A DNA stretch of 64,000 nt from a bacterium (GCA_016699045.1 CP064957.1:409784-473783); one strand, 5' to 3'. Counted from the first letter of the stretch, positions 3,426-59,975 are shown. The notes: generated by a model from the letters alone, not told the origin. A program made the numbers and translations.

Positions 3426-3433
3426 GAACAGAT

Positions 3434-24185: not shown

Positions 24186-24240
24186 ATCTCTCTTAAAAAG
24201 TATCTACATTTACTTGACCAGAGCAGTTTTTTGTATCTTT

Positions 24241-24360: not shown

Positions 24361-24594
24361 ATCATGATGCAAAAACAGAAAAATGTATGCAATCTTTTGG
24401 AATATACAAGTGTGGCCATCGACGGTGAGTAAAGGGTCAATCATTTAATTTACAAAAATCATAATGATCGAAAGAGCGTTATATAAACAGAAAACGTACC
24501 CCTACTTTTCTAAATAATATTCTTGGTGTAGCATAAAGAACGCTTGCTAGCCACCTGCCCTTATTTAATGTAATAATCAAACAAGGAGTTTTTC

Positions 24595-29256: not shown

Positions 29257-29276
29257 GATTAAATTCTCCTATTTTT

Positions 29277-30074: not shown

Positions 30075-30274
30075 CGATCTCCTTATTATTTCGATTCCTC
30101 AGCTTTCGCTGTAATCTCTTCCACTTCCTTTACTACTTTCTTACTTATTTACTTGTCGCTCATAATGAGATGCTTTGGTAACAGCGTAAGATTCTGTTCC
30201 TGCACCAAAGTTTAAAAAATAGCCTGCACTATGTTTCCACTCATCTCATATCTCCTCTTTTCATCATAATTCAT

Positions 30275-33041: not shown

Positions 33042-34090
33042 TTGGTGGCATTATGGGCTACGGGGCTTACATTCCACGCTACCGAATCAGCGTTGAAAAA
33101 CTCGCACAAGCTCTTGACGACAATGCTACACAGATTATCAACTCACTAGCAATTGCCGAAAAATCAGTCCCGGGCAAAGATGAAGATAGCCTCACGATGG
33201 TCGTTGCTGCGGCAAAAAATGCTTTAAAACGGGCAACGTTACCAGCACCATCACTGCAAGCAGTTTATGTTGGCAGCGAAAGCCATCCCTACGCCGTCAA
33301 ACCTTCCGCAACAATTTTAGGTGAAGCTTTAGGGATTGGCACCAATTATATGGCTGCCGATTTTGAATTTGCTTGCAAAGGCGGCACCGCTGCCCTGCAA
33401 GCCGCTCTTGGTGTGGTTAAGGCTGGGATGGCCTCGTACGCGTTGGCCGCCGGCAGCGATACCGCTCAAGCAAAGCCAACAGATATTTTAGAATATGCCG
33501 CCGCCGCTGGGTCCGCCGCTTTTATTGTTTCAAACAATCTTGATGAAGCGTGCGCAATTGTTGAACGAACATTATCGTACAGTTCAGACACGCCAGATTT
33601 TTGGCGTCGTTCATCAGCTGCCTACCCAGAACATGGCGGACGTTTTACTGCACAACCAGCTTACTTTGCGCATGTTGTGGCGGCAACACAACAACTTTTA
33701 ACGGCACACAACCTCAAACCAACCGACATCGATCATGTTATTTTTCATCAACCAAATGGTAAATTCCCCGTGATGGCCGCCAGGCAACTTGGTTTTTCTC
33801 GGGCCCAACTGGCCAACGGCTTACTTGTTGAAAAAATGGGCAACTCGTACAGCGCTAATTCACTTTTGGGTCTTACGGCGGTACTGGACAACGCACTACC
33901 CAACCAAACTATTCTATTAGTTAGTTATGGCAGCGGCAGCGGCTGCGATGCTTTCGTAATTAAAACAACTGAAAAAATTTTATCGGTCCAAAATAAAGCA
34001 CGTCGCACCCAAGAATATTTGGCAGAAAAAAAGTATATTTCCTACGCAACATATCTTCATCATTTAACCTGCTTGTACGGTGCATTATGA
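33038..34090 (+). CDS. HMG-CoA synthase, short archaeal type
   Basis: 350 aa. GIMGYGAYIPRYRI, KDEDSLTMVVAAAKNAL, VGSESHPYAVKPSA, EFACKGGTAAL (catalytic Cys region). ATGA overlap with mvaA. Confidence 0.85.
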   Translation: MIGGIMGYGAYIPRYRISVEKLAQALDDNATQIINSLAIAEKSVPGKDEDSLTMVVAAAKNALKRATLPAPSLQAVYVGSESHPYAVKPSATILGEALGIGTNYMAADFEFACKGGTAALQAALGVVKAGMASYALAAGSDTAQAKPTDILEYAAAAGSAAFIVSNNLDEACAIVERTLSYSSDTPDFWRRSSAAYPEHGGRFTAQPAYFAHVVAATQQLLTAHNLKPTDIDHVIFHQPNGKFPVMAARQLGFSRAQLANGLLVEKMGNSYSANSLLGLTAVLDNALPNQTILLVSYGSGSGCDAFVIKTTEKILSVQNKARRTQEYLAEKKYISYATYLHHLTCLYGAL

Positions 34091-35244
34091 ACATTGCGAT
34101 TATCGGCATTGGCCAAACAAAATTCGGTGAATTGTGGGAAAGTTCGCTGCAAGATTTACTTGCATACAGCCAACTTGCAGCCCTCAAAGATGCTAATATT
34201 TCAGCACAAGAAATTGAAGCACTGGTGGTCGGCAACATGTGTGGAGAAAGTACCGGAGGTCAAGTACATCTTGGCGCACTAGCTGCACATATTTTAAATC
34301 TCAATGTTCCAAGTATGCGCGTTGAAGGAGCCTGTGCATCAGGTGCGTTAGCACTGCAACAAGGTATAGCACTTATTGAAGCCGGCAAGGCAGAAGTAGT
34401 ACTAGTCAGCGGCGTTGAAAAATTAACTGATGTTGATGCCGGCACACTGGCAACGAGTATGATTGGCGCCAGCTTACAGGAAACAGATCATTTTGTGGGC
34501 CTTACTTTCCCAAGCCTTTTTGCACTCATCACGCGTTTATATTTTAATGAGCACGGCATTACGCGTAAGCACCTTGCACACGTGAGCGTTAAAAATCATT
34601 TGCACGCAAGCTTAAACCCCAACGCACATTTTACCAAAGACATTTCTCTTGAAACGGCGCTACACGCACCAATGGTCGCCGACCCACTGGGTCTTTTTGA
34701 CTGCGCACCAGTTTCTGACGGCGCTGCATCGATCATTATCACAACACCAGAATTTGCGAAACGCAAAGGCATCAAGCCGGTGTTGATCATTGGCTCTGGC
34801 GTTGCCACTGATTCATTAATGTTTGGCGAACGCACGACACTCACATCTTTTGTCGCCACAAAATTAGCCGCACATAGTGCTTATCAACAAGCTGGCATTG
34901 AGCCGGAAAATATTGATCTGGTTGAAGTGCACGATGCATTTACCATGGCCGAAATTATGGCGCTTGAAGATTTAGGTTTTTTTGAACCGGGACAAGCAGC
35001 TTACGCAACACAAAAAGGCACCACAAAATTCAATGGCACCCTACCCGTCAACATGTCTGGTGGACTCAAAGCACAAGGACATCCCGTTGGCGCCACTGGC
35101 CTTGCACAAATTATTGAACTTATCAGACAGCTACGCGGCACTGCCGGCAAACGACAAATTGCCAATGCACGCACTGGCCTTGCACACAACATGGGCGGCA
35201 TTGGCTCTACCGTAGCGGTTCATATTCTTGCAAGTAACCATTGA
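34087..35244 (+). CDS. Acetyl-CoA C-acetyltransferase (thiolase), archaeal/SCP-x-like type
   Basis: MNIAIIGIGQTKFGE, RVEGACASGALAL (active-site Cys), NMSGGLKAQGHPVGATG, NMGGIGS. ATGA overlap with the HMGCS gene. Confidence 0.85.
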   Translation: MNIAIIGIGQTKFGELWESSLQDLLAYSQLAALKDANISAQEIEALVVGNMCGESTGGQVHLGALAAHILNLNVPSMRVEGACASGALALQQGIALIEAGKAEVVLVSGVEKLTDVDAGTLATSMIGASLQETDHFVGLTFPSLFALITRLYFNEHGITRKHLAHVSVKNHLHASLNPNAHFTKDISLETALHAPMVADPLGLFDCAPVSDGAASIIITTPEFAKRKGIKPVLIIGSGVATDSLMFGERTTLTSFVATKLAAHSAYQQAGIEPENIDLVEVHDAFTMAEIMALEDLGFFEPGQAAYATQKGTTKFNGTLPVNMSGGLKAQGHPVGATGLAQIIELIRQLRGTAGKRQIANARTGLAHNMGGIGSTVAVHILASNH

Positions 35245-35340: not shown

Positions 35341-35982
35341 ATGAAGAAAACATTTCACTACTCGCTAATTTTTGCTGTAATATTTGCCAGCACCGCCATA
35401 GCAGCAGGAACTGCTACAGAAAAAGAATTTTCCATCTGCCCAAGCATTCCCGATGACTTTTGCCTTGAAGACAAACAACTGATCACGGCGGTAAAAAAAG
35501 GGCTTCACGAAGCATTAGAACGAATTCTTCTTTTCCATAAAAATGTTAATCTTGAATATGAAGAAGGCTCGTTGCTTCATCATGCAGCGAGTGAAGGACA
35601 TCTTAAATGTGCTGAATTACTCGTTAATAACGGTGCTGATATTTCTGCCACCACACCACACGGCGGCACACCTCTCCATTGCGCTGCATGGAAAGGCTAC
35701 ACAGACATCGTACAATTTCTTTTGAATAATAATGCACCAATTAATGCAATTAATTTCATTGAACAAGCAACACCATTACATTGGGCAGCAAAACAAAATC
35801 ACACTAATTGCATAGCGCTGCTTCTAGCTGCCGGCGCCAACCCAACACTAAAAAATGCCACAAACAAAACAGCAGCAGATTACGCAGAAGAACTCGGTCA
35901 CCAAGAGCTTGCAGCCCTACTACGCACAGCAGAAATAACATGGCAAAAAGAACATAAGCAAAAAGCGTGTACCATATCATGA
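35341..35982 (+). CDS. Secreted ankyrin-repeat protein
   Basis: Signal peptide MKKTFHYSLIFAVIFASTAIAAG. ANK repeats SLLHHAASEGHLKCAELLVNNGADI, TPLHCAAWKGYTDIVQFLLNNNAPI, TPLHWAAKQNHTNCIALLLAAGANP. Confidence 0.9.
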   Translation: MKKTFHYSLIFAVIFASTAIAAGTATEKEFSICPSIPDDFCLEDKQLITAVKKGLHEALERILLFHKNVNLEYEEGSLLHHAASEGHLKCAELLVNNGADISATTPHGGTPLHCAAWKGYTDIVQFLLNNNAPINAINFIEQATPLHWAAKQNHTNCIALLLAAGANPTLKNATNKTAADYAEELGHQELAALLRTAEITWQKEHKQKACTIS

Positions 35983-36677
35983 AAAAAATATTATTAAAAA
36001 TAGGCTTACTGTTTGGCATATTTTTTAGCTTTGGATCGTTATTCTCAACAAACATTTCAGATATAGACATGTTAATGTCGCTCAATTTTAATCAAAAAAT
36101 AGATACACTCAATCTACTCATTAAAACAACACCAAAAGACGCTTTAAATGAAGCAATACAACAAGATATTAAAGCTATTTTTATGAGTCTTTTTTACGAA
36201 CTGCCAACACAAGGGCCAGAAGAAAAACTTGCGTTCAAAAAACTCTTGCTCAATCTTTTGCAGTCACCACTTCCATCGCACGAGCAGCGAGATTACATAA
36301 CCAAATTGGTACTGCCACTCATAGACCCTTCAGGCAATTATGTTATTCCAACGCCAGAAACGCAACGCGCTCTACCAACAACAGAAGAAAAACAAGAACC
36401 GACAGTAAAAGATTCTGCCGAAGAACAAGGACGCATTTTGCAGGAACCACTCATGGTTCCTGTCATTACCAAAGCATGGGTGGTAAATGAAGATGGCAAC
36501 CGTGAACAAATAACTGATATTACCTTTAGAACTATCGCACCAAAAACAGCGCAACCAACATCAGAAAAAAAAACAACGGGTGCCCCGCCAAGTATCATAC
36601 CAACGCCAGAAGAAGGCGTGCGCTTTGGCAAAGGTCGCAGGCCACTGAGCAAACGAGCAGGCATTTATCGCTGCTGA
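35979..36677 (+). CDS. Hypothetical secreted protein, possible distant relative of family A
   Basis: The ATG at 35979 overlaps the ankyrin stop (ATGA). Signal peptide MKKILLKIGLLFGIFFSFGSLFS. The segment LLQSPLPSHEQRDYITKLVLPLI resembles the family A motif SPLL..DQQ.Y....(I/V)P. Basic C-terminal end. Confidence 0.45.
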   Translation: MKKILLKIGLLFGIFFSFGSLFSTNISDIDMLMSLNFNQKIDTLNLLIKTTPKDALNEAIQQDIKAIFMSLFYELPTQGPEEKLAFKKLLLNLLQSPLPSHEQRDYITKLVLPLIDPSGNYVIPTPETQRALPTTEEKQEPTVKDSAEEQGRILQEPLMVPVITKAWVVNEDGNREQITDITFRTIAPKTAQPTSEKKTTGAPPSIIPTPEEGVRFGKGRRPLSKRAGIYRC

Positions 36678-36705
36678 TATTATTTCACAAAAAACAAGGC
36701 CCATC

Positions 36706-37089
36706 ATGAAAAACGATACCAACACAACACTCCGAGAACTCAGCGAACTTACACAAAAATTCATCAACGAACGCGACTGGGCAAAGTACCACAGCCCAAA
36801 AGATATATCTGCCAGTTTAAGCGTTGAGGCTGGCGAACTTTTGGAATTATTTTTGTGGCGCTCAACCGAAAAAATTTATACAGAGCTTGAACAAAATGAA
36901 AAATTCAAAACTCAAGTTAAAGAAGAACTAGCCGATATTTTATTTTGCTGCCTAAATTTTGCGAACCTTACCAACATTGATATATCACAAGCATTTAGAG
37001 ACAAACTCGCCAAGTCGGCACTCAAATATCCGACATCGCAAGTCAACACAGTTGAAAAATATTTTGCACTCAAATACAAGGATAAATGA
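36706..37089 (+). CDS. MazG-like nucleotide pyrophosphohydrolase (dCTPase/DCTPP1-like)
   Basis: LRELSELTQKFINERDWAKYHSPKDISASLSVEAGELLELFLW and EELADILFCCLNFANLTNIDISQAFRDKLAKSALKYP are the two metal-binding helices of the all-alpha NTP-PPase fold. Confidence 0.8.
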   Translation: MKNDTNTTLRELSELTQKFINERDWAKYHSPKDISASLSVEAGELLELFLWRSTEKIYTELEQNEKFKTQVKEELADILFCCLNFANLTNIDISQAFRDKLAKSALKYPTSQVNTVEKYFALKYKDK

Positions 37090-37138
37090 GGCGAACTCGA
37101 TAATTTTAGCCTGCCTTCCCCCCAATGCACTATTTTTT

Positions 37139-37238
37139 CCGTTCACACTGAGGAGCGCCATAGGCGCATCTCGAAGTGTTGAATATACATCGACCCTTCG
37201 AGACGATCGATTACATCGATCTCCTCAGGGAGAACGGG
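37139..37238. repeat. Pair of inverted extragenic hairpin elements (locus 2, expanded-loop variant)
   Basis: Unit A is ccgttcacactgaggagcgccataggcgcatctcgaagtgttgaa (37139..37183). Unit B, inverted, is cttcgagacgatcgattacatcgatctcctcagggagaacggg (37196..37238). They share the CCGTTC...CTGAG...TCGAAG frame with locus 1. Confidence 0.55.
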
Positions 37239-37258
37239 ACTTAGAACATACCTATTTA

Positions 37259-39145
37259 TTATGTCGCTATTGTCTTGTTAATTATTGTTTGCAATTGCAA
37301 ATACGCTTGTTTCGCTTCTTCAAGCGACGCGCCATCTTCAAGCGTACTCACATCACCAACCGGCGATCCTTCAACAACCGCCTTAAGCAAGCGACGCATA
37401 ATTTTTCCTGAACGTGTTTTAGGCAATTTATCAACACAATAAATGCCACACAACATCACAAAAGCACCAATGTACTCACGCACTACCTGGGTAATCTGTT
37501 GTTTGACATGATCGTGAGATTCACTACCACTATTTTTCAAAATAACAAACAACACCACCGCCTCACCGCGCAATTCATCGTGCACGCCAATCGCTGCCGC
37601 TTCTGCAATCATCAGCAACGTTACCACAGCACTTTCTATTTCTGCCGTACCAATGCGATGCCCTGCAATGTTAACTACTTCGTCAGCTCGACCAAGTAAC
37701 CAAAAATAACCGTCTTCATCAACGCGCGCATAATCGCCGGTATAATACATGCCCTTAAAGCGACTCCAATAAACTTCTTTAAATCGCTCTGGATCATTGT
37801 ACACACCAATCGTCATACCGGGCCATGGTTTTTTGATAACTAAATATCCCTTGGTTCCTGCCGGCACTGGATTGCCATGCGTATCAACAACTTCTGCAGC
37901 TATGGTTGGCAGTGGCACGGTTGCAGAACCAGGTTTGAGCGCTACCAAATCAAGGCCCGCGGTTGGCGCAATCATAAAGCCACCAGTTTCTGTTTGCCAC
38001 CAGGTATCAATCACTGGACAACGCCCGGCACCAATGCGTTCATGATACCAGCGCCACACGTCAGGATTGATTGGCTCCCCAACGGTTCCCAATATTTTTA
38101 AACTTGAAAGATCGCACGCTGCCGGCCATTGATCACCATACTTTATGCACATGCGAATAGCAGTTGGAGACGTGTAAAAAATTGAAACACGATATTTTTC
38201 AACCAAACGCCACCATGCCGATGGATCTGGATAGTCCAACGTGCCTTCATGAATGACGGAGGTAAGTCCAAGCAATAATGGTGCATAGACAACATACGAA
38301 TGACCAGTAATCCAGCCAATGTCTGCCGTACACCAATAAACCGACGTATGATCTGGATCAAACGCCCACTCCATCGTCGTTCGTGCGTACGTCAAGTAGC
38401 CGCCAGTTGAATGCATTAAGCCTTTTGGTTTTCCCGTAGTTCCTGACGTGTACAATATAAACAACGGATGATTTGCTTCAACCGCAACCGGTTCAACAAA
38501 AACATTCTCTTCAAAAAAATCATCCGCAACAACATCACGACCTGGTTGTAAAAAAACTTCTTGTTCAAAGCGTTTTATCACCAACACTTTTTCAATTGAA
38601 GAACATTCGCTCACGGCATGATCGACAATTTTTTTAAGTTCAATTCTTTTCCCACGACGAACACCCGCATCAGCGGTGATAACAAATTTTGCTTGCGTAT
38701 CATCAATTCGATCTTTGAGCGCATGACTACTAAAACCTGAAAACACCACCGAATGCGTAGCACCAAGGCGTGCGATTGCCAAAATGGCTGCAATCGCTTG
38801 CGGAATCATTGGCAGGTAGACCATCACAATATCATTTTTGCTCACGCCAATTTTTTGCAACGCATGCGCATACTGATTAACTTGTTTATACAACTCGGCA
38901 TAGGTCCAAGTAACAGCATTTCCTTGCTCGTCTTCACAATGGTAGGCAACTTTATTACCAAGACCATTTTTGATATGCACGTCAACGCAAGCGTACGACG
39001 CGTTGAGCGTGCCGCCAGAAAACCAATGCGCGTACGGTTCTTGCCAATCAAGAACCCTCTTCCAACGCTTAAACCATGCTAACTTTTCAGCTTGTTGTTC
39101 CCAAAAATTTTCTCTATTTAATCGATCATCACGAGCGGGCATCAT
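37259..39145 (-). CDS. acs: Acetyl-CoA synthetase (acetate--CoA ligase)
   Basis: YTSGTTGKPKG AMP-binding motif, WWQTETGG, YYTGDYARVDEDGYFWLLGRADEVVNIAGHRIGTAEIE, KLPKTRSGKIMRR. The start is set at ATGATG 39145 behind the RBS aaggatga (the ORF track extends to 39244). Confidence 0.9.
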   Translation of the reverse strand: MMPARDDRLNRENFWEQQAEKLAWFKRWKRVLDWQEPYAHWFSGGTLNASYACVDVHIKNGLGNKVAYHCEDEQGNAVTWTYAELYKQVNQYAHALQKIGVSKNDIVMVYLPMIPQAIAAILAIARLGATHSVVFSGFSSHALKDRIDDTQAKFVITADAGVRRGKRIELKKIVDHAVSECSSIEKVLVIKRFEQEVFLQPGRDVVADDFFEENVFVEPVAVEANHPLFILYTSGTTGKPKGLMHSTGGYLTYARTTMEWAFDPDHTSVYWCTADIGWITGHSYVVYAPLLLGLTSVIHEGTLDYPDPSAWWRLVEKYRVSIFYTSPTAIRMCIKYGDQWPAACDLSSLKILGTVGEPINPDVWRWYHERIGAGRCPVIDTWWQTETGGFMIAPTAGLDLVALKPGSATVPLPTIAAEVVDTHGNPVPAGTKGYLVIKKPWPGMTIGVYNDPERFKEVYWSRFKGMYYTGDYARVDEDGYFWLLGRADEVVNIAGHRIGTAEIESAVVTLLMIAEAAAIGVHDELRGEAVVLFVILKNSGSESHDHVKQQITQVVREYIGAFVMLCGIYCVDKLPKTRSGKIMRRLLKAVVEGSPVGDVSTLEDGASLEEAKQAYLQLQTIINKTIAT

Positions 39146-39331
39146 ACGATCATCCTTTTTTATTAGCCACACATTACACTCACAAAAAGCGTTTATTACT
39201 AACTGCTTGCTGCACAATGTAACGGAAAAAATATGCTTGAGCAAACTACAATCTCACAACTCACAAATAACGAGAGGGGCACTCTTTTTCGAATGCCCCT
39301 CAGACAAAAATTCTCTTTAAATGTTAAAAAA

Positions 39332-42300
39332 TTATTCTTTAACCTGGCAGTTATCGCAGGTTTCATGCAAGTTTGCAACGCGAACATTCTTACACGTATC
39401 CTCATCTACCAACACTTTTGCTCGTCCGTTTTCATCCTGCATTTGCGCAGCCCTTGCATAAAGCTCAGGAGATACCGTAAACGATTTGTCTGAATCTAGA
39501 CACGGCATCACGTTTGTCCACAAAGACGAACGATGTGGCAATTGCCTCCAACGACGAGTACCATCTTCACACTTAAATACATCTACATTTGCTTCAGCAT
39601 GCGGCGCAAGAGCCCACGCCGTTTTATCTTTATTTGCAAAAAGTTCATTGCCATCATCAAGAGAGCAACAGTCATGATCCGCTAGCTCACAGGAAGCTGG
39701 GGCTGTATTTAGTAGCCACATGTGTTGTGCAGGATCCCACGTTGCAAAACGTGCACCATCATTCCACGTCACCAATTGAGATTTTGCAACGTCAGTTGGG
39801 CTGAAAAGCTCAAATTGACTGGCTTGCTCATTCAACTTAAACAACCGATTATCCGGGCCCAAACAATATTCTTGTCCCGCAAAGTCTTTACAATCAGGAA
39901 CATTGGCCCATCGTCCGGTTTCGTCTTCACTTTCTCCGCGATGCCAATATTTCACTGCATTATTTTCAGCGTCACTGTCTTCATTAATGCAAAACAATGC
40001 AGAGTCATTGTTGCAATCATCAGACATTAAAACCCATTCAGTCAAATCATCATTAAGTATAAAGACGCGACCATCTGGCCCCATACACATGCCATCGCGT
40101 TCATTACCAGTACACATTGGCGCATCATACCAACCATAATCATCACAATCTGAATGCCAATAATAAACATCGCCATTTAGATCACAATATGCCAAATTAC
40201 CTGCGTTATCAAAAAAGCAATCAGAACCGCTTAACGAAACCCACGCATTAGCATTATCATTTGGTATAAAGATTTTACCATCTTTACCAACAAATTTACC
40301 CGCACAGACTTCTGATGATTCCTCATCCCAATACGGAACATCTTGCCACGAAAGTACACCATCCTCAAAATGGCGGTAAAAAATACGCCCATTTTGCAGC
40401 ATACAATCTGCCTCTTCAAGCGTACATGGCATTCCCTCAGTCCAAACACCAGAATCTTTTTTTGAATAAAACGTTGTTGCATAATCGGTTCTGGTATCAA
40501 CTTCACAGATACCAGCACTCAAATCACACGGTGGATTTAACGAACAATGACCATTTTCATCACAAAATACATTTATCTTTTTGCCAGCTTTATTAACAAA
40601 ACGATACAATACTTGTTGATCATTCCAATCTTCAGGCGTATTTTGCCACTGCTGATTTGCCGCACTCCAAAATTCCAAAACACCGCCTAGATCGCATACT
40701 TCTCCCGATACACCAACACCACATGGAGAAACCTCACTATACGTTCCATCAGAACGCAAATAAAGCTTGAGATCACCAACACGACAAAGCACCGAATCTT
40801 TTTCACATGAAGGCTCTAAGCTCCATTGATTGCCATGGCGATACAGAATCGTTTTTTCATCACTTTGCCTACAATATGGCACAGATGATTTATCGCCACA
40901 TAAATCGGCCGGCTTCCATCCATCATTGCCAAACCAAAAATACGCACCATCTCCAAATCTAATCAAGCGAACATCTAGTGCAACATCAAGATTTAAAAGC
41001 CACAGCGTCTTGCCATCAAGCGTACCAGCATACAGTCTATTGCCATCATCAAGTGTACAATAGCCCTTTGTTTGACCAGTAAGCCTCATTAACAATCCAC
41101 CACTATTCGCTTTTTTACAAGCCTGCGGTGCATCATTAATAAGCCACTTCTTTTGCTCAGGATCCCAGGTTGCGTAGTTTCTACCATCGCCAAAATCAAC
41201 TAAACGAGATTTGATTACATCTTCAGGTTCTTTTAACTCAACAAAGTATCCGGCAGCATTGCGTTGAAATAACGTACCATCAACGCCCACACAATAATTA
41301 AGGTCGGCAAAATCATCACAAGAAGGGATATCACTCCACCAGCAGCCATTACCCATATTCTTCCAATATTTAACCTTGCCATCTTTGGTACAGTAGCTTA
41401 GGGTCGTTCCTTGAATCATGCACTTACTTGCATCTTCAAGACGAACCCAGCCCGTGCAATCATCATTTGGTATAAAAATACGTCCATCAGGTCCTTTAAA
41501 AACACCTTGGTGCGATACAGACCAATCCCACGCTGGCGTATCTTCCCAAGAACTGGTTCCATTCTTTATGTGAGGATAGTACACGGCATCATTTTCAAGA
41601 ACGCAGTATTTGTCCGAGTACGCATCGCACGGCATACCCTCAGTCCAACTCGAAGCATCTTTTTTTCTGAAAAATTCAGTCCCATCAACAATGCAAATTC
41701 CTTCACGCGGTTGGCAAGGAAATTTGACGCTGCAACTACCATCTTTGTTGCAAAAAACTAAAACGCCACTTTGATCAGATTTAATAAAGCGATAGAGCTT
41801 TTTGTTTGCAGCCCAATTAACCGGTTTATTCTGCCATTTTTTTTCTTGGTAATTCCAAAATTCTATGATGTTTTCATCAAAAATACAGACAGCCTCTGAG
41901 TGCTCGCCATCAGCACACGGCGACGTTTCTTTATACGATCCATCTTCATGAAGGTAAAATTTTAAATCATCAACAGTACAAATTTTAACACCATTGCCAC
42001 ATGGCGGGGTCAGCAGCATATCATTGCCATGTCGGTACAATCGCAAGCCATCTGGCAAATCACAATATAGCTTATCTCTATCACAAAAAGGTTTTTCAAC
42101 TCCTTCGCGAATCACCGGCAAGTTTTGAAAACACAAGCGACCGTCTGGTAAAAAATGAAATCCTTTTTTTCCAACGGAACAATGCCATGCGCCCGGAGTT
42201 ACATCGCCAACAAAAGCTAAGTTTTTCCCATTACAAAGTATTATTGGCAACAAACTTGACCCATCATTTTTCGACGCATTAATACAAGAAAAATCAATCT

Positions 42301-43237
42301 TATCATTAATCGAATATTCTTGTTTTTTGCAACGAATTTGCCATGCATTTATACACGTAGGTCCTGCAAACAGGTGGGTATCGCATTGATTTGGATTCCA
42401 TAGCGCATCTTTTACATCATGAGCTTTTTCTGAAATCGCCACACGATTTTCATAAATGCCAGCGCCTACCAACAATGCCAACAAACCATACCCACAAGCT
42501 TTGATGACCCATGATTGACTTTGAGCAGACTCATCGTCATACAAAATATGCGGACAATCAAGAATTTGATCGCCATTAATAAACGTCTCCGTAGGAAATG
42601 ATTTTGTTTCCATCGATTCTTTTTCATCGTCATATGAAATCAGAATCGTTACAAGTGGTGATTTTTTGACAAGAGCACCACCTGACCTATCATTCGTCAA
42701 TCGAACTTGTATCGAACGTGGATCAAAAAAATCGACAATCAAATTAAATAAGCGCTCAAGAAATTCTCGTTTATTATAATTTTTTACACTCATATGACAA
42801 TATGTACCACCACCATCATGCCTGTCAGCACGCTCACACACGGCAGCATTAATTAACATCAATTGCTGCTGAATTTGATCTTGAATACCAGGTAGCTCTG
42901 GCATTCTTGGCGTCAGCAACTTATCAAGCTCATCGGCAGAAAAACGAAACGCTTCACTGTATGCAAGATCAGTATAAAGATGTGCCATAACAGCAGGCAT
43001 CATCTCTGCTTGCAGCCGACTCAGTGATCGTTTTTGTAAATCTGTTAATTGATTTCCCCCGTCAAACACTACTTTTTTAAAAATGCTTTTCCATTTGGCA
43101 TCAAGATCAAACTGACACCGTTGTTTCAGAAAATTATTAAATTGATGATCGTACACAACATATTCATGCTTTACTGCATTCAATGACATTGAACATAAAA
43201 AAAGAACACTGAACAACAGCGCACGTGGCATACCCAT
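39332..43237 (-). CDS. Giant secreted Cys/Trp/Asp-rich protein with two tandem ~360-420-aa repeats, no recognisable domain
   Basis: 1301-aa uninterrupted ORF. Signal peptide MGMPRALLFSVLFLCSMSLNAV. One hydrophobic stretch at aa ~247-262. Repeat 1 is aa ~390-750 (nt 40988..42070) and repeat 2 is aa ~787-1210 (nt 39608..40879). The two repeats are alignable along their length. Confidence 0.7.
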   Translation of the reverse strand: MGMPRALLFSVLFLCSMSLNAVKHEYVVYDHQFNNFLKQRCQFDLDAKWKSIFKKVVFDGGNQLTDLQKRSLSRLQAEMMPAVMAHLYTDLAYSEAFRFSADELDKLLTPRMPELPGIQDQIQQQLMLINAAVCERADRHDGGGTYCHMSVKNYNKREFLERLFNLIVDFFDPRSIQVRLTNDRSGGALVKKSPLVTILISYDDEKESMETKSFPTETFINGDQILDCPHILYDDESAQSQSWVIKACGYGLLALLVGAGIYENRVAISEKAHDVKDALWNPNQCDTHLFAGPTCINAWQIRCKKQEYSINDKIDFSCINASKNDGSSLLPIILCNGKNLAFVGDVTPGAWHCSVGKKGFHFLPDGRLCFQNLPVIREGVEKPFCDRDKLYCDLPDGLRLYRHGNDMLLTPPCGNGVKICTVDDLKFYLHEDGSYKETSPCADGEHSEAVCIFDENIIEFWNYQEKKWQNKPVNWAANKKLYRFIKSDQSGVLVFCNKDGSCSVKFPCQPREGICIVDGTEFFRKKDASSWTEGMPCDAYSDKYCVLENDAVYYPHIKNGTSSWEDTPAWDWSVSHQGVFKGPDGRIFIPNDDCTGWVRLEDASKCMIQGTTLSYCTKDGKVKYWKNMGNGCWWSDIPSCDDFADLNYCVGVDGTLFQRNAAGYFVELKEPEDVIKSRLVDFGDGRNYATWDPEQKKWLINDAPQACKKANSGGLLMRLTGQTKGYCTLDDGNRLYAGTLDGKTLWLLNLDVALDVRLIRFGDGAYFWFGNDGWKPADLCGDKSSVPYCRQSDEKTILYRHGNQWSLEPSCEKDSVLCRVGDLKLYLRSDGTYSEVSPCGVGVSGEVCDLGGVLEFWSAANQQWQNTPEDWNDQQVLYRFVNKAGKKINVFCDENGHCSLNPPCDLSAGICEVDTRTDYATTFYSKKDSGVWTEGMPCTLEEADCMLQNGRIFYRHFEDGVLSWQDVPYWDEESSEVCAGKFVGKDGKIFIPNDNANAWVSLSGSDCFFDNAGNLAYCDLNGDVYYWHSDCDDYGWYDAPMCTGNERDGMCMGPDGRVFILNDDLTEWVLMSDDCNNDSALFCINEDSDAENNAVKYWHRGESEDETGRWANVPDCKDFAGQEYCLGPDNRLFKLNEQASQFELFSPTDVAKSQLVTWNDGARFATWDPAQHMWLLNTAPASCELADHDCCSLDDGNELFANKDKTAWALAPHAEANVDVFKCEDGTRRWRQLPHRSSLWTNVMPCLDSDKSFTVSPELYARAAQMQDENGRAKVLVDEDTCKNVRVANLHETCDNCQVKE

Positions 43238-43419
43238 AACTACTCTCCTCGTTGGATAAAAACCGAAAAATGTGAATAAAAAACATGCGCATAATGTAGC
43301 AAAACAATAATGGCCTGCAAATAAAAACTATCAACATTTTTTTTCAAATTGTGTACATCACGCATTATTTTTTGCAATATTTTTTGTTTTGATGCTAAAA
43401 AATGCTTTGTTATTGCCTG

Positions 43420-44065
43420 TTGTAAGCATTGTATGCAAGATGATCAACCAACATCTGCCGATACTCTGCAAGCTCAGAAACAGAAGCTCCCACCGTTTTT
43501 GCGCTTTCTTCTAAACGACGTATCATCAATTTTTCTTTAAACAATGGATCTTTTTCAAAAGCTTCAGCTTCTTGTTCAGTCATAGCCCCGCCTTGACGCT
43601 TTAATGTTTCCTGACTTGCGGGCGAAATCTGCTGTAAATAATCGGGTTGCCGAGAAACAAGATACCCGCTTGCACATGAGCTCCGACAAGTGCTGCAACA
43701 AGATCTGAAAATCCATGTTGTTTCAAAAAATCAGCGCCAATATCTTCATGATGCGCAACGCCATAGCCATCCATTTGCTCGCTATCTTTTGCAGCACACA
43801 AGTGGCCAATGTCGTGAAGCAAGGCAGCAATAACAATTTGGTCATCGCAGCCGGCCAACCTCGCTTGATACGCGCATTGAATGGCGTGTTCATACTGCGT
43901 AATTGCTTCGCCGATATAATCATAATCTTTACCTAACTCAATAATGCTCATGACTTTATCAACAACAGACTCTACCGATAGCAACTCATTTGGCATTGCT
44001 CGCAAAGATACAGAAAACACACAGAACACTAATAAACTCATAATTTTTGAAAATAAACGATTCAT
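43420..44065 (-). pseudogene. HD-domain protein of the PhnZ-like (HD phosphohydrolase/oxygenase) family, frame-shifted
   Basis: ORF 43601..44065 has QYEHAIQCAYQARLAGCDDQIVIAALLHDIGH and HHEDIGADFL...GAHVQA, then loses frame. The adjacent frame continues as GYLVSRQPDYLQQISPASQETLKRQGGAMTEQEAEAFEKDPLF...RRLEESAKTVG to a stop at 43420. The shift maps to the C/G run at about 43665..43668. Confidence 0.55.
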
Positions 44066-44264
44066 GACAATAATCTCCTTTCATAACTTTTTTAGACAAC
44101 ATTAACCAGCCAAAGCCTAGCACGAAAAAATGAAAGTCTAAAAAATTCTACACTTTCCTAAAATCACGCTCATGATTGTTTTTCTCGACATCACGCAACC
44201 CATCGGCTATAAAAATAAACATAGTATTTTTGAATGGTCTACGCATCACAACCGGAGAATTTTA

Positions 44265-44936
44265 ATGAAGAAAATAAGCTTATTGTTGTGCGCACTCTCG
44301 CTCATACTTTCGTCAGCACACAGCGTTACCACGCGATCGCAAGCAAGAAAAATAAGAGCCGTTTTTTTAAACTATGGCATTAAGTTATGCCAAGAAAATG
44401 AAACAAAAGAAGTCATAAACTTACTTGAAACAAATACGCCAACACCAAGCGAGCTCAGCACATTTATGGCCGCATGCACTCAGCAAGGAAACGTACAGTG
44501 CTTGAGCGTCCTTCTCGCTCAACCTGAAGTATCGCATGCCCTTAAAATTGATGGAGAACCATTGCTCAACGCACTTTATTGGTGGAATCATAATAAAAAT
44601 AACTGTGCATGCGTTAAACTTTTATTGCAATCCGGTGCAAACGCCAACCCTGCCACTGCATACAAAAATACCGCTCTTCATCTTGCCAGCAAAAGAGGTT
44701 GCCTTAAGTGCATTGAAAGACTCATCAAATCTGGCGCTGATATATTTGCAGAAAATTTTGAAAAAGAAACTCCCATAGAAATTTTTTACAACAATTACAA
44801 AGAATTTTTTAATGAAGGCACGATCGACCCGATTAATTTATTTATTAGTATGGTACCTAAATCTCACGATGAAGACACGTCAGAAGATGAAGACACCTCG
44901 GAATTTGTTAACATAGTCACCGAATCTCACTCTTAA
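44265..44936 (+). CDS. Secreted ankyrin-repeat protein with acidic C-terminal tail
   Basis: RBS ggaga plus ATG at 44265. Signal peptide MKKISLLLCALSLILSSAHS. ANK repeats (TALHLASKRGCLKCIERLIKSGADI). Tail HDEDTSEDEDTSEF. Confidence 0.85.
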   Translation: MKKISLLLCALSLILSSAHSVTTRSQARKIRAVFLNYGIKLCQENETKEVINLLETNTPTPSELSTFMAACTQQGNVQCLSVLLAQPEVSHALKIDGEPLLNALYWWNHNKNNCACVKLLLQSGANANPATAYKNTALHLASKRGCLKCIERLIKSGADIFAENFEKETPIEIFYNNYKEFFNEGTIDPINLFISMVPKSHDEDTSEDEDTSEFVNIVTESHS

Positions 44937-44949
44937 TAATTCAGACACC

Positions 44950-45615
44950 ATGATAAAACCAACCCACCAAGCCCTTTTATTATTGTTCATATTGACACTG
45001 ACCGTGCCGGCCAACCCGCGCACGGTCATCATGTTTGATCCAGCCGGGGACTCGCATGAGCTGGGCCGCAAACTTGCGCAAGGTTATGAGCGCGGCGCAA
45101 CGCTCACGCTGGCCGAAAAATTGCACCACGAGCTCTCGCAAGAACCAGGACTTTATCCGCTATTAAGCCGCCAACCAGGCGAGCAATGCCTCCCGCTACA
45201 GGCAGCATCTTTTGCCAACCGGCTTCAGACAAACCTGTTTGTGCGCTTGCATTGTTACCACGAGCTCACGGCAAAGCCGCGCATGTACATTTACTACAAG
45301 CTTCATAACCCTCTCACCGACCTTGCCCCCCGCCCGACCGTAAACGATCGTACGTTTACCCCCCTTTCCCAAGCCCATCTACCTAACCTGCGCCTCTCGA
45401 TCAAGCGAGCTGAAAGCATAAAAGAGACACTATCAAGCACCGACTACCAACAACTTTTCGATTGTTATGGCCCCTCTGGTCGACCGCTTAAGGCATTAAC
45501 CGGCATCCAGCCAAGCGCTCTGGTTATTGAAATTGGCCTGAGTGGATCAACCAAATTAGAAAGTCTAGTTCAACCCCTCAAAAATGCCATACTCAACGCC
45601 CTGCTCGTTGTATAA
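44950..45615 (+). CDS. Divergent Amidase_3 (N-acetylmuramoyl-L-alanine amidase)-like protein
   Basis: The layout matches AmiC/CwlD by eye: VIMFDPAGDSHELG (vs DPGHGG), YERGATLTLAEKL, NLFVRLHCYH (vs lfvSiHaD), PSALVIEIGL (vs psvLvEtgF). The first Zn-ligand His is displaced. Confidence 0.4.
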   Translation: MIKPTHQALLLLFILTLTVPANPRTVIMFDPAGDSHELGRKLAQGYERGATLTLAEKLHHELSQEPGLYPLLSRQPGEQCLPLQAASFANRLQTNLFVRLHCYHELTAKPRMYIYYKLHNPLTDLAPRPTVNDRTFTPLSQAHLPNLRLSIKRAESIKETLSSTDYQQLFDCYGPSGRPLKALTGIQPSALVIEIGLSGSTKLESLVQPLKNAILNALLVV

Positions 45616-45722
45616 AATAAATACACCAAAGCATACGATTTCTCTGGCCATTTTGGACTCCTCATGTTATGATTTTCATAACATATTATCTGTTTTATTT
45701 GAGAACAAAAAAGAGTTCCATT

Positions 45723-46229
45723 ATGATCTTTTTAGATTCACTCGTTGTTTTTTTCGAACAACTCCTTTACCCCCATTTTTCATCATTCACAACGCCTGAA
45801 GCCCTCATCAGCCTGGGGTGGTTTGTTCTTGGCATCTTTGTGCTCATTATTGAAATCAACATGCCGGGGCTTTTTTATTGCATCGCTTTGGCTTGTGGCT
45901 GTTTTACTGCGAGCGTGTTAGCACTGCTTGACTACAGCCTTTTTTCCCAGTGCCTTGTAGCGCTGGGCATTACAACACTCGCTTTTGCCAGCCTGCGCTC
46001 CTACTTTGGCGCACCAGCACAACCAACATTGCCCACCAACAGCGAAGCATTAATCAATAAACATGGAATTGTTGTAAAAACCATTGAGACCCATACCGCA
46101 GGCCGTGTAAAAATTAACGGTGAAGAATGGCCAGCATTAAGCGCCAACCACACGATCATTTTACAAAAAGGAACCTCAGTTCGCATTATTGGCATCAAAG
46201 GCAATAAAGTTATTGTCAAAACAGATTAA
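45723..46229 (+). CDS. NfeD-family membrane protein
   Basis: Hydrophobic N-terminal helices plus the C-terminal OB-fold segment GRVKINGEEWPALSANHTIILQKGTSVRIIGIKGNKVIV. Located immediately upstream of the SPFH gene, the classic operon arrangement. Confidence 0.75.
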   Translation: MIFLDSLVVFFEQLLYPHFSSFTTPEALISLGWFVLGIFVLIIEINMPGLFYCIALACGCFTASVLALLDYSLFSQCLVALGITTLAFASLRSYFGAPAQPTLPTNSEALINKHGIVVKTIETHTAGRVKINGEEWPALSANHTIILQKGTSVRIIGIKGNKVIVKTD

Positions 46230-46250
46230 TTAGACATAAAGGAACCCACT

Positions 46251-47237
46251 ATGATTTTTCTCATTTTTTTCGGCATTCTCTTTTTGTTCTTGGCTTTTTT
46301 GCTGATCAAAGCAACGTACGTTGTCAAACAAGCTGAAGTTGTAATCATCGAACGCTTTGGTAGTTTTCAACGTGTTTTAAAGCCAGGCCTCAATTTTGTT
46401 ATGCCATTTGCAGACAAACCCCGCCAAGTATTGTGGACATTTATTCAAGAAGAAGCACGCAGCGGAAAAATGTATCGATTCTCTCGCTATATTGAACGTA
46501 TTGATTTGCGCGAAAGCGTTTACGATTTTCCAAAACAAAACGTTATTACCAAAGACAACGTTACCATGGAAATTAACGCCCTGCTTTATTTCCAAATTAC
46601 CGATCCAATAGCTGCAACGTACGAAATAGACAACTTGCCACAAGGTATTGAAAAACTCACCCAGACAACCTTACGTAACATTATAGGCTCATTGGATCTT
46701 GATGAATCGCTCACTTCACGCGATATGATCAACGAAAAACTTACGCTCATTCTTGATGAAGCAACCGATAAATGGGGCGTTAAAGTTAATCGCGTTGAGC
46801 TCCAAGAAGTCAACCCACCACGCGATATTAGAGATGCGATGGAAAAACAAATGCGAGCAGAACGTGATCGCCGTGCCCACATTTTAGAAGCTGAAGGTTT
46901 TAAAACAGCTGCGGTTCTGGAAGCTGAAGGTAAAAAGAGTGCGGCCATCTTAGAAGCTGAAGGCGTGCAAATGTCTCAAGTCATGCGCGCAAAAGGTGAG
47001 TCTGATGCTCGTCGCTTGCTGGCGCAAGGTGAAGCAGATGCTATAAAATTGGTGCGAGATGCAATTCCAAACCAAGACCCACTGCCATACATGACCGCCA
47101 TCAATTACATCAAGGTATTACCAGAAATGATGAAAGATAAAAATGGCAAACTCATTGTAATTCCGTATGAAGCAAGTGCTGTTATGGGTTCATTAAGTGG
47201 CATTAAAACACTTTTTAAGGACCTTGATAAATCTTAA
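46251..47237 (+). CDS. SPFH/band-7 (stomatin/prohibitin-like) protein
   Basis: N-terminal anchor, then VVKQAEVVIIERFGSFQRVLKPGLNFVMPF...DFPKQNVITKDNVTMEINALLYFQITDP...RAERDRRAHILEAEG. Confidence 0.9.
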   Translation: MIFLIFFGILFLFLAFLLIKATYVVKQAEVVIIERFGSFQRVLKPGLNFVMPFADKPRQVLWTFIQEEARSGKMYRFSRYIERIDLRESVYDFPKQNVITKDNVTMEINALLYFQITDPIAATYEIDNLPQGIEKLTQTTLRNIIGSLDLDESLTSRDMINEKLTLILDEATDKWGVKVNRVELQEVNPPRDIRDAMEKQMRAERDRRAHILEAEGFKTAAVLEAEGKKSAAILEAEGVQMSQVMRAKGESDARRLLAQGEADAIKLVRDAIPNQDPLPYMTAINYIKVLPEMMKDKNGKLIVIPYEASAVMGSLSGIKTLFKDLDKS

Positions 47238-47262
47238 TTAATAAAAAAAGGAGCTTACAAAG

Positions 47263-47559
47263 ATGGTTAACCGCATTAAAATTCCTGTTATGTTTTTAGG
47301 CGGCTTACTGTTTTTTTGGTGGGCATTTTTATTATTTGCACGTAACAACACGGAAGATGCTCACCTTTATAGTAAAAACGCTTACTGCCAAAATACCAGT
47401 AAAATTTATGCTGATTTGGGCGAACTTGCGGAAAAAAGGCAAGACTTCCAGCAAGCAATTAGACACTATACAACAGCGCTGAATTTTCAGTCAGATCATG
47501 ACATTACTAAAAAACTTAATGCATGTTACAAGTTTCTGAATACAACTCATGCTACTTAA
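47263..47559 (+). CDS. Small membrane-anchored protein with one TPR-like motif
   Basis: 98 aa. Anchor IPVMFLGGLLFFWWAFLLFA. LGELAEKRQDFQQAIRHYTTALNF is TPR-like. Confidence 0.4.
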   Translation: MVNRIKIPVMFLGGLLFFWWAFLLFARNNTEDAHLYSKNAYCQNTSKIYADLGELAEKRQDFQQAIRHYTTALNFQSDHDITKKLNACYKFLNTTHAT

Positions 47560-47590
47560 AGAATAAACACGTTTTCTTATATTTATCGTA

Positions 47591-47623
47591 AAAAGGCACG
47601 GAACAAAATACCGTGCCTTTTTT
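47591..47623 (+). terminator. Rho-independent terminator
   Basis: Stem ggcacgg (47595..47601) / ccgtgcc (47611..47617) with a 9-nt loop, followed by TTTTTT. Confidence 0.55.
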
Positions 47624-47751
47624 GATTATAACCATAGAATCTAGACTATTTTTTATTCTAAAAAACATTATTTGCTTTTTTTTTAGTAACCATGCTACTG
47701 TACCTAAACAAGTAATTTTTTAAAATAATCTTTCATAATGCGAAGGAAAAA

Positions 47752-48423
47752 ATGCTTAAAAAAATATTCGTAGCATTGGGAATCTTCGTAAATATTTATG
47801 CTCCTTCCAATTACGGAGCAGCACCTCTAACGGCACGTCCCAAGCCCACCCACGAAGAATTAATCAAAAAAATGGTTTTTCTTACCGCGTCAGAAATCAA
47901 AATTCCCTACCTGTTATTTCAAGAAATACACGAAAAAATAGTCTACCTTTGTGAAATGTTTTATCGGGCAAAAACATATCACAAGCAAGAAGAAGCAGCT
48001 TGTTTGTTAATGTTATTAGAAGCTTTTCATACAAACGCACCAAAGACAGCCTTTTCTGAAAATGTCATCATCGCGGCTACGCGTTATGGCCTTACCAAAT
48101 CTTGCAAGCAATCACTCTTCTTCATTGGCGATGATAATACCATGTCGGACATGATTTATCACAGCATTCAACTGATACTTTACCAACAACAATCAGGCTA
48201 TTTTTGGTATAACATGATCTCAGATCTTGAGTATTGTAAAGCTGTGCAAATCTCAGATATCGTCAATCAATACAATCAACCTAAAAAAGAATCACAAAAG
48301 AAAAAAAATATTCGAATCAAAAAAAATGCAAAAAAAAGAATTGTCCTAACTAAAAAAGCAAAAAACAAATTCTGCCACAGGTCTTCTGAAAAGCACATAA
48401 GATTATGGAAAAAAAAACAATAG
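47752..48423 (+). CDS. Hypothetical secreted protein (family B, member 1) with Lys-rich tail
   Basis: Signal peptide MLKKIFVALGIFVNIYAPSNYGAA. Core IPYLLFQEIHEKIVYLCEMF...YGLTKSCKQSLFFIGDDNTMSDMIYHSIQLILYQ...FWYNMISDLEYCK. Tail KKESQKKKNIRIKKNAKKRIVLTKKAKNK. Confidence 0.55.
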   Translation: MLKKIFVALGIFVNIYAPSNYGAAPLTARPKPTHEELIKKMVFLTASEIKIPYLLFQEIHEKIVYLCEMFYRAKTYHKQEEAACLLMLLEAFHTNAPKTAFSENVIIAATRYGLTKSCKQSLFFIGDDNTMSDMIYHSIQLILYQQQSGYFWYNMISDLEYCKAVQISDIVNQYNQPKKESQKKKNIRIKKNAKKRIVLTKKAKNKFCHRSSEKHIRLWKKKQ

Positions 48424-48962
48424 CAGCTTTAAGCCTCATAAATATTTTTTATACAATAAGCGGATACGGAACAGCACGCGAACTTTTTCTGTACAGATCT
48501 AAAAGCGAATTATCTGCCGCTCAACAAAGCGTCATTATCATTGTTGCAACAAATACTCAAATTCCTTTTTTATATTTTAAAGAAATAGAAAAAAAAATTG
48601 ATACCATATTTTCGCATCTCGCTCATATAAAAAAATTACAACCACGCGAAGAAGAACGCTTTTTTAATTTTTTCAAACACCTTCTTGCCGCTCGACCAGG
48701 CCAAGCTCTTACTCACGACATTATGGTATTTGCTCAAGAATTTGGTTTAACACAATCAATGCATAATGCTTTTTTTCTTATCAAAAATAATGGCATGATA
48801 ACCGACATGGCACATCAATGCATTCAAGTAATTATTACCGAGCTCATTGAAGATTTTTATTGTCATTTCACTATTAATGAATTAGAAAAAATGAGAAAAA
48901 TAAAAATTAAAAAAAATAAAAACCAATATGGTAAAAAAGAATCAATTTTTCAACACAATTAA
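48405..48962 (+). CDS. Hypothetical secreted protein (family B, member 2) with Lys-rich tail
   Basis: Signal peptide MEKKTIAALSLINIFYTISGYG. Core IPFLYFKEIEKKIDTIFSHL...FGLTQSMHNAFFLIKNNGMITDMAHQCIQVIITE. Tail MRKIKIKKNKNQYGKKE. 19-nt overlap with member 1. Confidence 0.55.
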   Translation: MEKKTIAALSLINIFYTISGYGTARELFLYRSKSELSAAQQSVIIIVATNTQIPFLYFKEIEKKIDTIFSHLAHIKKLQPREEERFFNFFKHLLAARPGQALTHDIMVFAQEFGLTQSMHNAFFLIKNNGMITDMAHQCIQVIITELIEDFYCHFTINELEKMRKIKIKKNKNQYGKKESIFQHN

Positions 48963-48972
48963 CAACAAGACA

Positions 48973-59968: not shown

Positions 59969-59975
59969 TTCGGTC

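Follow-up and report, generated by a model that had tools for sequence, protein, structure and literature searches.

A cysteine-bracketed hairpin-repeat protein, probably exported, from an orphan family of Dependentiae-type bacteria

Introduction

What kind of protein is encoded by the longest open reading frame (ORF) in a stretch of bacterial DNA if no described domain can be placed in it? The stretch analysed here, a 64,000-nucleotide segment (GCA_016699045.1 CP064957.1:409784-473783; hereafter the window), encodes a protein of 1301 amino acids. An original prediction, made from the sequence alone, described it as a giant secreted protein, rich in cysteine and tryptophan and composed of two tandem repeats of about 400 residues. 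The ORF is indeed uninterrupted and the largest of the window, with a runner-up of 661 aa.

39332..43237, minus strand: complete coding sequence with stop codon, 1301 aa; member of an orphan, Dependentiae-restricted family

The best explanation is that the product is a functional protein of an intracellular bacterium of the Dependentiae type, restricted to its lineage and either located in the envelope or secreted. From the N- to the C-terminus, it would consist of a Sec-type signal peptide, an α/β domain of ~220 residues, a Gly/Ala-rich helix, a rod of ~26 modules, and a small C-terminal cap. The Dependentiae are obligate intracellular bacteria of protists, and for the recognition and entry of their hosts the family provides a concrete candidate that lends itself to a binding or blocking study.

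A functional gene confined to a small clade

Searches of Pfam (E ≤ 10) and NCBIfam gave no match for the window protein. With six homologs included, Pfam (E ≤ 10) returned only sub-threshold noise, namely DUF7908 (E = 0.015-0.019) and Tachylectin (E = 0.065). No significant match was found in PHROGs, nor in the PDB when sequence-profile searches were run with full-length, unit, module, and GPDG-hairpin profiles. The assertion that the protein has no placeable domain was thus borne out in all four collections. A word-indexed search covering 5.8 billion proteins retrieved a 99% twin (P0001/P0005, QQR49595.1) and six more 90%-identity clusters of 924-1066 aa, one of which holds MBS1988366.1 from a Candidatus Dependentiae bacterium. 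A profile hmmsearch, which read every one of the 1.84 billion representatives of clusters at 50% identity with a cut-off of E ≤ 0.001, returned exactly six proteins. All six were family members, including a new, divergent one of 797 aa (P0017), and phmmer with P0017 retrieved only P0017 itself. Two scans of the GTDB species representatives and scans of the JGI metagenomes and the IMG/VR viral contigs yielded no further loci. In total, the family comprises eight 90%-identity clusters with an intact ORF in every one (797-1301 aa), and the sole named homolog is from Candidatus Dependentiae. Because the exhaustive profile search found family members only and the collection scans no further loci, the family is, by the tests used, a true orphan of a small clade and belongs to no described family. 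The suggested resemblance to disulfide-rich eukaryotic modules found no support as a statement of origin, given only six family members among the 1.84 billion representatives and an empty IMG/VR scan. We assign the window itself to the Dependentiae provisionally, from the one named homolog and from the gene content of the window (ankyrin-repeat ORFs, Fic, PQ-loop, ORFans).

The gene is under purifying selection. Whole-gene ratios of nonsynonymous to synonymous substitution rates (dN/dS, Nei-Gojobori) were 0.13 for the homologous loci L005 and L009 and 0.25 for L002 and L010. Within the repeat units described below, the values were 0.107 and 0.086, and those of the adjacent gltX amounted to 0.02-0.04. 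Could the ORF nevertheless be a decaying or spurious one that lacks a function? Its orphan status and the frameshift in the adjacent HD gene would suit this explanation, which is contradicted by the intact ORF in 8/8 clusters, by dN/dS values of 0.09-0.25, and by many invariant Cys, Trp, and Pro columns, so that it can hardly be correct. Its intactness and substitution pattern show the 1301-aa gene to be under purifying selection and, as the original prediction had assumed, real and functional.

All 8 homologous loci that were read (L002-L010, representing 6/7 homolog clusters) share the same arrangement. The gene is divergent, head-to-head with a gltX-like gene for a class I aminoacyl-tRNA synthetase, ~50-130 bp apart. 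Only in the lineage of the window and its near-identical relative L001 has the gene been relocated, to a position between acs and HD genes, and internally duplicated. The absence of a conserved partner gene for the 1301-aa protein, as originally noted, was confirmed. A GspD-type secretin is encoded 7-10 kb downstream of the family gene in L002, L005, and L009.

Three levels of repeats

Self-BLAST aligned aa 400-660 with aa 798-1062 at 40% identity (E = 7e-60), and the whole units R1 and R2 share 43.8% identity over 338 aligned residues. The two tandem units of ~400 aa are therefore real, but both had originally been drawn too short. We set their boundaries by alignment to homologs that contain a single unit.

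40898..42070, minus strand: repeat unit R1, aa 390-780, ~11-12 hairpin modules, one nested ~70-aa copy short
39500..40876, minus strand: repeat unit R2, aa 788-1246, ~14 three-stranded modules, in the ancestral layout as in all single-unit homologs
39890..40306, minus strand: nested tandem sub-duplication in R2, aa 978-1042 and 1042-1116 (BLASTP 36% identity, E = 6e-8)

The smallest element is a module of ~25 aa with the consensus xCxxxDGxxxYx7WxxxPxC, which is most regular in P0017. A hidden Markov model (HMM) built from the P0017 modules alone placed 14 copies in the window protein. This hairpin HMM scored 13.8 bits over aa 390-1260, compared with 0.0 ± 1.6 bits (maximum 4.0) for 100 shuffled sequences, which substantiates the short recurrent motifs noticed in the original prediction. 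Three modules make up a block of ~65-75 aa; in R2, each copy contains one hairpin each of the GxDGxxFIxND, Cys, and YWH types. The block is tandemly duplicated in R2 and in every homolog and is present as a single copy in R1. Because all single-unit homologs have both copies, the difference reflects a loss in R1 and not a gain in R2; what had been described as an extra insert of the second repeat is the ancestral nested copy. A 67-aa periodicity, indicated by a shifted high-scoring segment pair in BLAST, was discarded as a separate feature, since an indel of ~70 aa in the alignment of R1 with R2 accounts for it.

The largest level is the unit itself, of which every homolog has one and only the window/L001 lineage has two. 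In a neighbour-joining tree of the units, R2 grouped with the unit of homolog P0016 (98% bootstrap), and R1 was sister to that pair (90%). A recent, lineage-specific duplication of the unit is ruled out by this position of R1 outside the R2/P0016 pair. By the same tree topology, the unit duplication is old, or R1 was imported. The hierarchy of 25-aa module, 70-aa triplet, and 400-aa unit, each of them duplicated or deleted in individual lineages, offers a clean example of repeat-protein evolution.

Cysteine pairs and the topology of the protein

The composition of the 1301-aa protein is 4.8% Cys, 3.1% Trp, 9.7% Asp, 7.2% Gly, 5.8% Asn, and 8.5% Leu. Cys and Trp are clearly enriched, as had been claimed, but "dominated" by Cys, Trp, Asp, Gly, and Asn is too strong a word in view of 8.5% Leu. 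The conservation of the cysteines was analysed across the family. Invariant columns of Cys, Trp, and Pro are numerous, and among the variable Cys columns at least six pairs have an identical presence/absence pattern across homologs (e.g., 451/491, 382/390, 305/481, 537/571, and 245/256-257). One pair is swapped for an alternative pair in R2 and P0016. Because the cysteines are gained and lost in pairs, we infer that the modules are braced by disulfides and that the repeat region is located outside the cytoplasm. CxxC motifs number 0-2 per protein among 19-57 cysteines, and on account of this near absence a zinc-finger-like cytoplasmic domain was rejected.

The segments that flank the repeat units are as follows.

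43175..43237, minus strand: signal-peptide-like N-terminus, aa 1-21 (MGMPR / ALLFSVLFLCSMSL / NA), with an n-h-c layout and an L-x-A motif in all homologs
42509..43174, minus strand: N-terminal α/β domain, aa 22-243, starting with the conserved YDHQxxNF...CxFD; AlphaFold2 predicted local distance difference test (pLDDT) ~65-90 over aa 22-215
42449..42508, minus strand: Gly/Ala-rich, moderately hydrophobic helix, aa 244-263, with a Lys/Arg cluster before and an acidic flank after it
42071..42448, minus strand: Cys-rich pre-unit region, aa 264-389, ending in the first hairpin module GAWxCxxGKxxFHFLxDGRLC
39335..39499, minus strand: conserved C-terminal tail (aa 1247-1301), predicted as a small domain with a helix and a β-hairpin; pLDDT ~82-91, dN/dS ~0.10

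By inspection, the N-terminus of the window protein has a basic n-region, an h-region of 14 residues (13-15 across the family), and a cleavage motif of the L-x-A type. The N-terminus is thus signal-peptide-like, in keeping with the Sec signal peptide named in the original prediction, with a small residue at -1 and an aliphatic or small one at -3, and the pattern is conserved in the homologs. Its low AlphaFold2 pLDDT suggests that the segment is not packed against the N-domain. A lipoprotein was rejected, as there is no conserved lipobox. Taken together, a large, Cys/Trp-rich protein that is probably exported is supported by these sequence features. The N-domain has dN/dS values of 0.16-0.32, and its invariant residues were identified from the family alignment. 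Neither a sequence match nor a fold match was found for it (Foldseek of the domain model against the PDB, best E = 0.18).

The internal hydrophobic stretch ACGYGLLALLVGAGIY at aa 247-262, also listed in the original prediction, has a counterpart in 9/9 family sequences examined. It is only marginally hydrophobic, with a 19-residue Kyte-Doolittle mean of 1.2-1.75 across all members and an unweighted Hessa sum of +1.9 to +3.8 in nine sequences. In the same nine sequences pooled, 27 Lys/Arg residues lie upstream and 11 downstream of the helix. This charge bias opposes a stop-transfer anchor with a cytoplasmic C-terminal part and provides a second line of evidence, independent of the paired cysteines, for an extracytoplasmic repeat region. 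AlphaFold2 confidence was low for aa 258-350.

Two topologies may be considered. The entire mature protein may be translocated, the marginal helix passing the Sec machinery and acting later in another membrane or in oligomerization. Alternatively, the helix may serve as an N-in/C-out anchor, with the signal-like N-terminus left unused. A third arrangement would be that of a type I membrane protein, with the N-domain in the periplasm and the Cys-rich repeats binding metal in the cytoplasm. Formally, this topology is expected where a signal peptide is cleaved and a single transmembrane helix follows; the charge bias, however, is the reverse of that of a stop-transfer anchor, the helix is only marginally hydrophobic, CxxC is nearly absent, and the cysteines come and go in pairs like disulfide partners. 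We consider this arrangement very improbable.

Predicted structure and resemblance to known repeats

R2 and the C-terminal tail were modelled with AlphaFold2 from an alignment of nine rows, with a mean pLDDT of 78.8, a predicted TM-score (pTM) of 0.58, and pLDDT values of ~88-92 over aa ~936-1086. The R2 model is all-β. According to DSSP, a module comprises three short strands, which are xCx, an aromatic strand, and xWx; each module is thus predicted to form a three-stranded β mini-sheet. Foldseek ranked the CROPs of TcsL and TcdB at the top of the PDB matches (E ~5e-6, probability 0.98-1.00), followed by the glucan-binding repeats of glucansucrases and pneumococcal choline-binding proteins, and then by Rhs cocoons and various propellers. 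In BFVD, the best matches were an uncharacterised protein of Edafosvirus (E = 8e-7) and fibre proteins of adenoviruses and phages. As all TM-scores are ≤0.23, the model has only local hairpin geometry in common with these proteins, and not a global fold. The lectin- or propeller-like character proposed at first is not the best structural match either, since the CROPs and the glucan- and choline-binding repeats rank above the propellers.

The likeness to the CW_binding_1/CROP repeats includes the general architecture, that is, long tandem arrays of aromatic-rich β-hairpins of ~20-25 aa in exported proteins, C-terminal to a hydrophobic region. These repeats gave the best Foldseek PDB matches, with E-values from 5e-6 to 1e-3 and probabilities of up to 1.00. 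CW and CROP repeats bind glycans, choline, or receptors via aromatic faces. The CW_binding_1/CROP repeat HMM, however, gave no match at E ≤ 10 in the window protein and six homologs, and the repeat consensus GW..G.WYYF..G was not recovered, as the sub-repeat profile, compared by hhalign with manually entered LytA and TcdA repeats, gave a probability of 6%. The window family differs by its conserved flanking cysteines (CW repeats are not known to have any), by its third strand, and by its host, a diderm intracellular bacterium. One particular likeness, that of GVFKGPDGRIFIPND in the window protein to the long repeat of TcdA (GVFKGPNGFEYFAPAN), was followed up and dropped. The hairpin profile retrieved no toxin chain, and hhalign against the CW/CROP repeats remained at 6%. 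With the GPDG-hairpin profile, the only PDB matches were propeller lactonases at a weak E = 0.1. We treat the likeness of GVFKGPDGRIFIPND to TcdA as a generic GPDG turn and not as homology.

The second resemblance is that to the WW domain (PF00397). Both have a three-stranded antiparallel mini-sheet, here by AlphaFold2 prediction only, and the module resembles the Gly-x-x-Tyr...Trp-x-x(x)-Pro pattern of the WW β2-β3 hairpin. In hhalign, the sub-repeat matched a WW profile made from manually entered sequences with a probability of 84% and a score of 20.8 over just 17 columns, and 400 column-permuted controls scored ~6.5 ± 1.7 (maximum 15). Furthermore, the weak PDB matches of the sub-repeat profile were mostly WW domains (YAP1, PRP40, TCERG1, and FBP11; E 0.02-6). 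On the other hand, Pfam PF00397 did not match the window protein or the six homologs, and of the two Trp residues that lie 20-22 positions apart in WW domains, the module has only the second, a Cys strand taking the place of the first. The modules measure ~25 aa instead of 35-40 aa, form arrays of 11-14, and would be bracketed by disulfides and extracytoplasmic. We regard this not as membership but as a resemblance, which may stem from a convergent hairpin design.

β-Propeller lectins and sensors (tectonin, tachylectin, Kelch, BT4663-type) have short β-strand repeats with GxDG turns in common with the window protein. Their Foldseek matches rank lower (E 1e-4 to 5e-3, TM 0.08-0.19; tectonin, E = 5e-4, TM 0.10/0.17) and lie below family thresholds. 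The Tachylectin HMM matched one homolog only, P0014, with E = 0.065 and 13.4 bits against a cut-off of 29.8 bits. In contrast to propellers, a periodicity of blade size (40-50 aa) is absent and the modules are three-stranded, not four-stranded. Rhs/YD-repeat proteins were likewise dismissed (no Pfam match; Foldseek probability 0.28-0.44, TM ~0.1). An exported protein with tandem hairpin repeats is, as such, of a familiar kind; what is new is the cysteine-bracketed, WW-like module and the three-level repeat hierarchy.

The CROP matches raise the question of an AB-like secreted effector or toxin, in which the N-domain would be the effector, a glycine-zipper helix would enter the host or vacuolar membrane, and the hairpin repeats would bind a receptor in the way of clostridial CROPs. 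The order of N-domain, hydrophobic segment, and C-terminal hairpin repeats does mirror that of the large clostridial toxins, for whose CROPs the fold matches are best. Membrane segments of secreted effectors are marginally hydrophobic and contain many small residues, and the helix found here is likewise marginal and rich in small residues. In addition, many signal-peptide ORFans are secreted by Dependentiae (PMC6561590). On the other hand, the N-domain matches no enzymatic or other fold (best E = 0.18), HMM similarity to any toxin family is lacking, and one short helix is very unlike the large translocation domains of clostridial toxins. We judge the toxin explanation to be quite improbable.

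Envelope structure or host interface?

The features described so far are compatible with several roles outside the cytoplasm. Our preferred, tentative proposal, to which we give somewhat less than an even chance, is that the protein is displayed at the interface with the host and binds a ligand via aromatic hairpin faces. The rod would consist of ~26 small (~25-aa) three-stranded β modules, braced by disulfides and located outside the cytoplasm. It would be displayed extracytoplasmically and be tethered or oligomerized through the hydrophobic helix. The aromatic-rich hairpin faces would bind a ligand on the host-cell surface, a glycan or a protein, during attachment to or uptake by the protist host, and the unit duplication would double reach and valency.

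We infer surface display and host binding from the restriction of the family to one lineage, from the plasticity of the module number, and from the variability between strains. The module number differs by lineage through the unit duplication, the deletion of a module triplet, and acidic tails. The tails are low-complexity C-terminal extensions of ~110-160 aa in P0002, P0014, P0015, and P0017, which the window protein does not have; in P0002 and P0014 they contain an imperfect internal repeat and evolve almost neutrally (dN/dS 0.69 between the two). Compared with the near-identical L001, the gene carries 30 nucleotide differences, and positions 36000-40500 and 44000-48700 of the window carry 0 and 2, respectively. 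The differences are concentrated in the C-terminal half of R1 (synonymous divergence, pS, ~0.10) and in the N-domain, where five are non-synonymous and none is synonymous. Overall, the ratio of nonsynonymous to synonymous divergence (pN/pS) is 0.36, from numbers too small for a claim of positive selection. The pattern looks like a recombination tract and makes the gene the variable locus of its neighbourhood. Host contact is also suggested by the local fold, which is common to receptor-, glycan-, and choline-binding arrays and to virus fibres, and by the fact that the presumed host-manipulation repertoire of the Dependentiae is enriched in signal-peptide ORFans (PMC6561590). To this presumed repertoire, the family contributes a member that is conserved, selectable, and predictable in its structure. 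ORFan secreted proteins are frequent in the phylum, and the function assigned here is a proposed one. With respect to export, the phylum core includes a type II secretion system (PMC4776705).

Several observations weigh against host-interface display. No ligand or partner can be inferred for the protein. There is no evident route across the outer membrane, as an autotransporter barrel, a lipobox, and a known sorting signal are all missing. A Dsb-type gene was not found within the 64-kb window. The combination of a signal peptide with an internal hydrophobic helix fits two topologies, and the N-domain may therefore reside on either side of the membrane. Besides the low TM-scores of all structural matches, rmsd values were 11-44 Å over the matches listed, and the repetitive β structure probably inflates the significance of the Foldseek E-values. 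Finally, strong purifying selection, the single copy, and the synteny with gltX fit a housekeeping role in the envelope equally well. The literature on cysteine-rich or adhesin proteins of Dependentiae yielded nothing specific.

A housekeeping role in the envelope leads to the main rival, a structural protein of the periplasm or envelope. Here, a disulfide-rich rod on an N-in/C-out helix of the inner membrane would span or organize the periplasm or wall, or cross-link the envelope of an extracellular stage in the manner of chlamydial cysteine-rich proteins, and it would bind the bacterium's own wall polymers and not the host. The charge bias of the helix favours precisely such an anchor, and the closest folds include hairpin repeats that bind cell wall, choline, or glucan. 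The single copy, the adjacency to gltX at 8/8 homolog loci read, and strong purifying selection are equally in keeping with it, as is the cysteine richness, which has a parallel in envelope proteins of other obligate intracellular bacteria (Chlamydia OmcA/OmcB). Other data are difficult to reconcile with a structural role. The conserved signal-like N-terminus would have no explanation if the N-domain were cytoplasmic. Paired covariation of cysteines indicates intramolecular, not intermolecular, disulfides. The family is missing from nearly all Dependentiae sequences among the 1.84 billion representatives, a distribution that one would not expect of a core envelope function, and the gene is a variable spot between near-identical strains. 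We regard a purely structural role as unlikely, though with a chance that deserves to be taken seriously.

The comparison with chlamydial OmcB/OmcA is a functional analogy only. Shared traits are a cysteine-rich exported protein, an obligate intracellular bacterium, and an extracellular stage, and OmcB is described as an envelope component and an adhesin (PMC5067637). No sequence-family match was found in Pfam or NCBIfam, and the repeat architecture is unrelated.

A bolder version of the host-interface proposal would treat the modules as undescribed, extracellular, disulfide-stapled WW-like mini-domains, either a bacterial offshoot of the WW fold or its independent reinvention. The ~26-module rod together with a glycine-zipper helix would then be the device by which one Dependentiae clade attaches to and enters its protist host. 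This is speculative and, in our estimation, has only a small chance of being correct. If it were true, stringing WW-like, three-stranded modules with disulfide braces into a chain would represent a new way of building an extracellular rod.

Expression signals and genomic neighbourhood

The gene has its own set of putative expression signals.

43307..43334, minus strand: promoter-like site TTGATA-16-CATTAT, upstream of the 1301-aa gene (consensus scan, pattern match only)
43243..43250, minus strand: Shine-Dalgarno sequence GAGGAGAG, preceding the ATG at 43237 by 5 nt (read from sequence)
39274..39301, minus strand: intrinsic-terminator-like hairpin, 30 nt past the stop codon, with a T-rich tail and an 11-bp stem in which 7 pairs are G-C

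The promoter consensus scan of the region gave 18 sites versus 13.4 expected. Because the gene has its own Shine-Dalgarno sequence, a promoter-like site, and a terminator-like hairpin, the view that it is monocistronic was upheld. Both flanks were also as originally described. The acs gene was confirmed by NCBIfam as acetate-CoA ligase (E = 2e-264), and the HD gene is frameshifted. This PhnZ-like gene (43400-44065, minus strand) is split by a 4-nt deletion at ~43667-43668 relative to the 99% identical L001, in which it forms an intact ORF of 219 aa; the 5' ORF in the window has 154 aa. The break could be a true pseudogenization or an assembly error. An ankyrin-repeat ORF beside the HD gene has a weak likeness in NCBIfam to Legionella Dot/Icm Ank effectors, at E = 4e-10 and falling far short of the cut-off.

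Small ankyrin-repeat ORFs number at least four in the window (18838-19425, 26762-27265, 35341-35982, and 44172-44936). The window also contains genes for a Fic/DOC-domain protein (3389-4183), a PQ-loop protein (59342-60016), whose family is more typically eukaryotic, and an ATPase of type II/IV secretion (T2SSE, 53856-55097). Two runs of ORFs without a Pfam match, at 27460-31549 (three ORFs, one of 598 aa) and 47752-50390 (four ORFs), may encode further lineage-specific proteins.

A complete-looking mevalonate pathway, notable in a reduced intracellular bacterium, is encoded in two clusters. The first, at 22138-26242, comprises diphosphomevalonate decarboxylase and GHMP kinases, and the second, at 31764-35244, HMG-CoA reductase, HMG-CoA synthase, and thiolase. 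The segment 31000-34500 covers the genes for HMG-CoA reductase (31764-33041) and an HMG-CoA synthase-like protein (33038-34090), as well as the first part of the thiolase gene, and is ~15-16% divergent from L001. This looks like an allele replacement by recombination in the mevalonate pathway genes. The GC skew is negative in 31/32 2-kb bins of the window, which places the window within one replichore and the 1301-aa gene, being encoded on the minus strand, on the G-rich strand.

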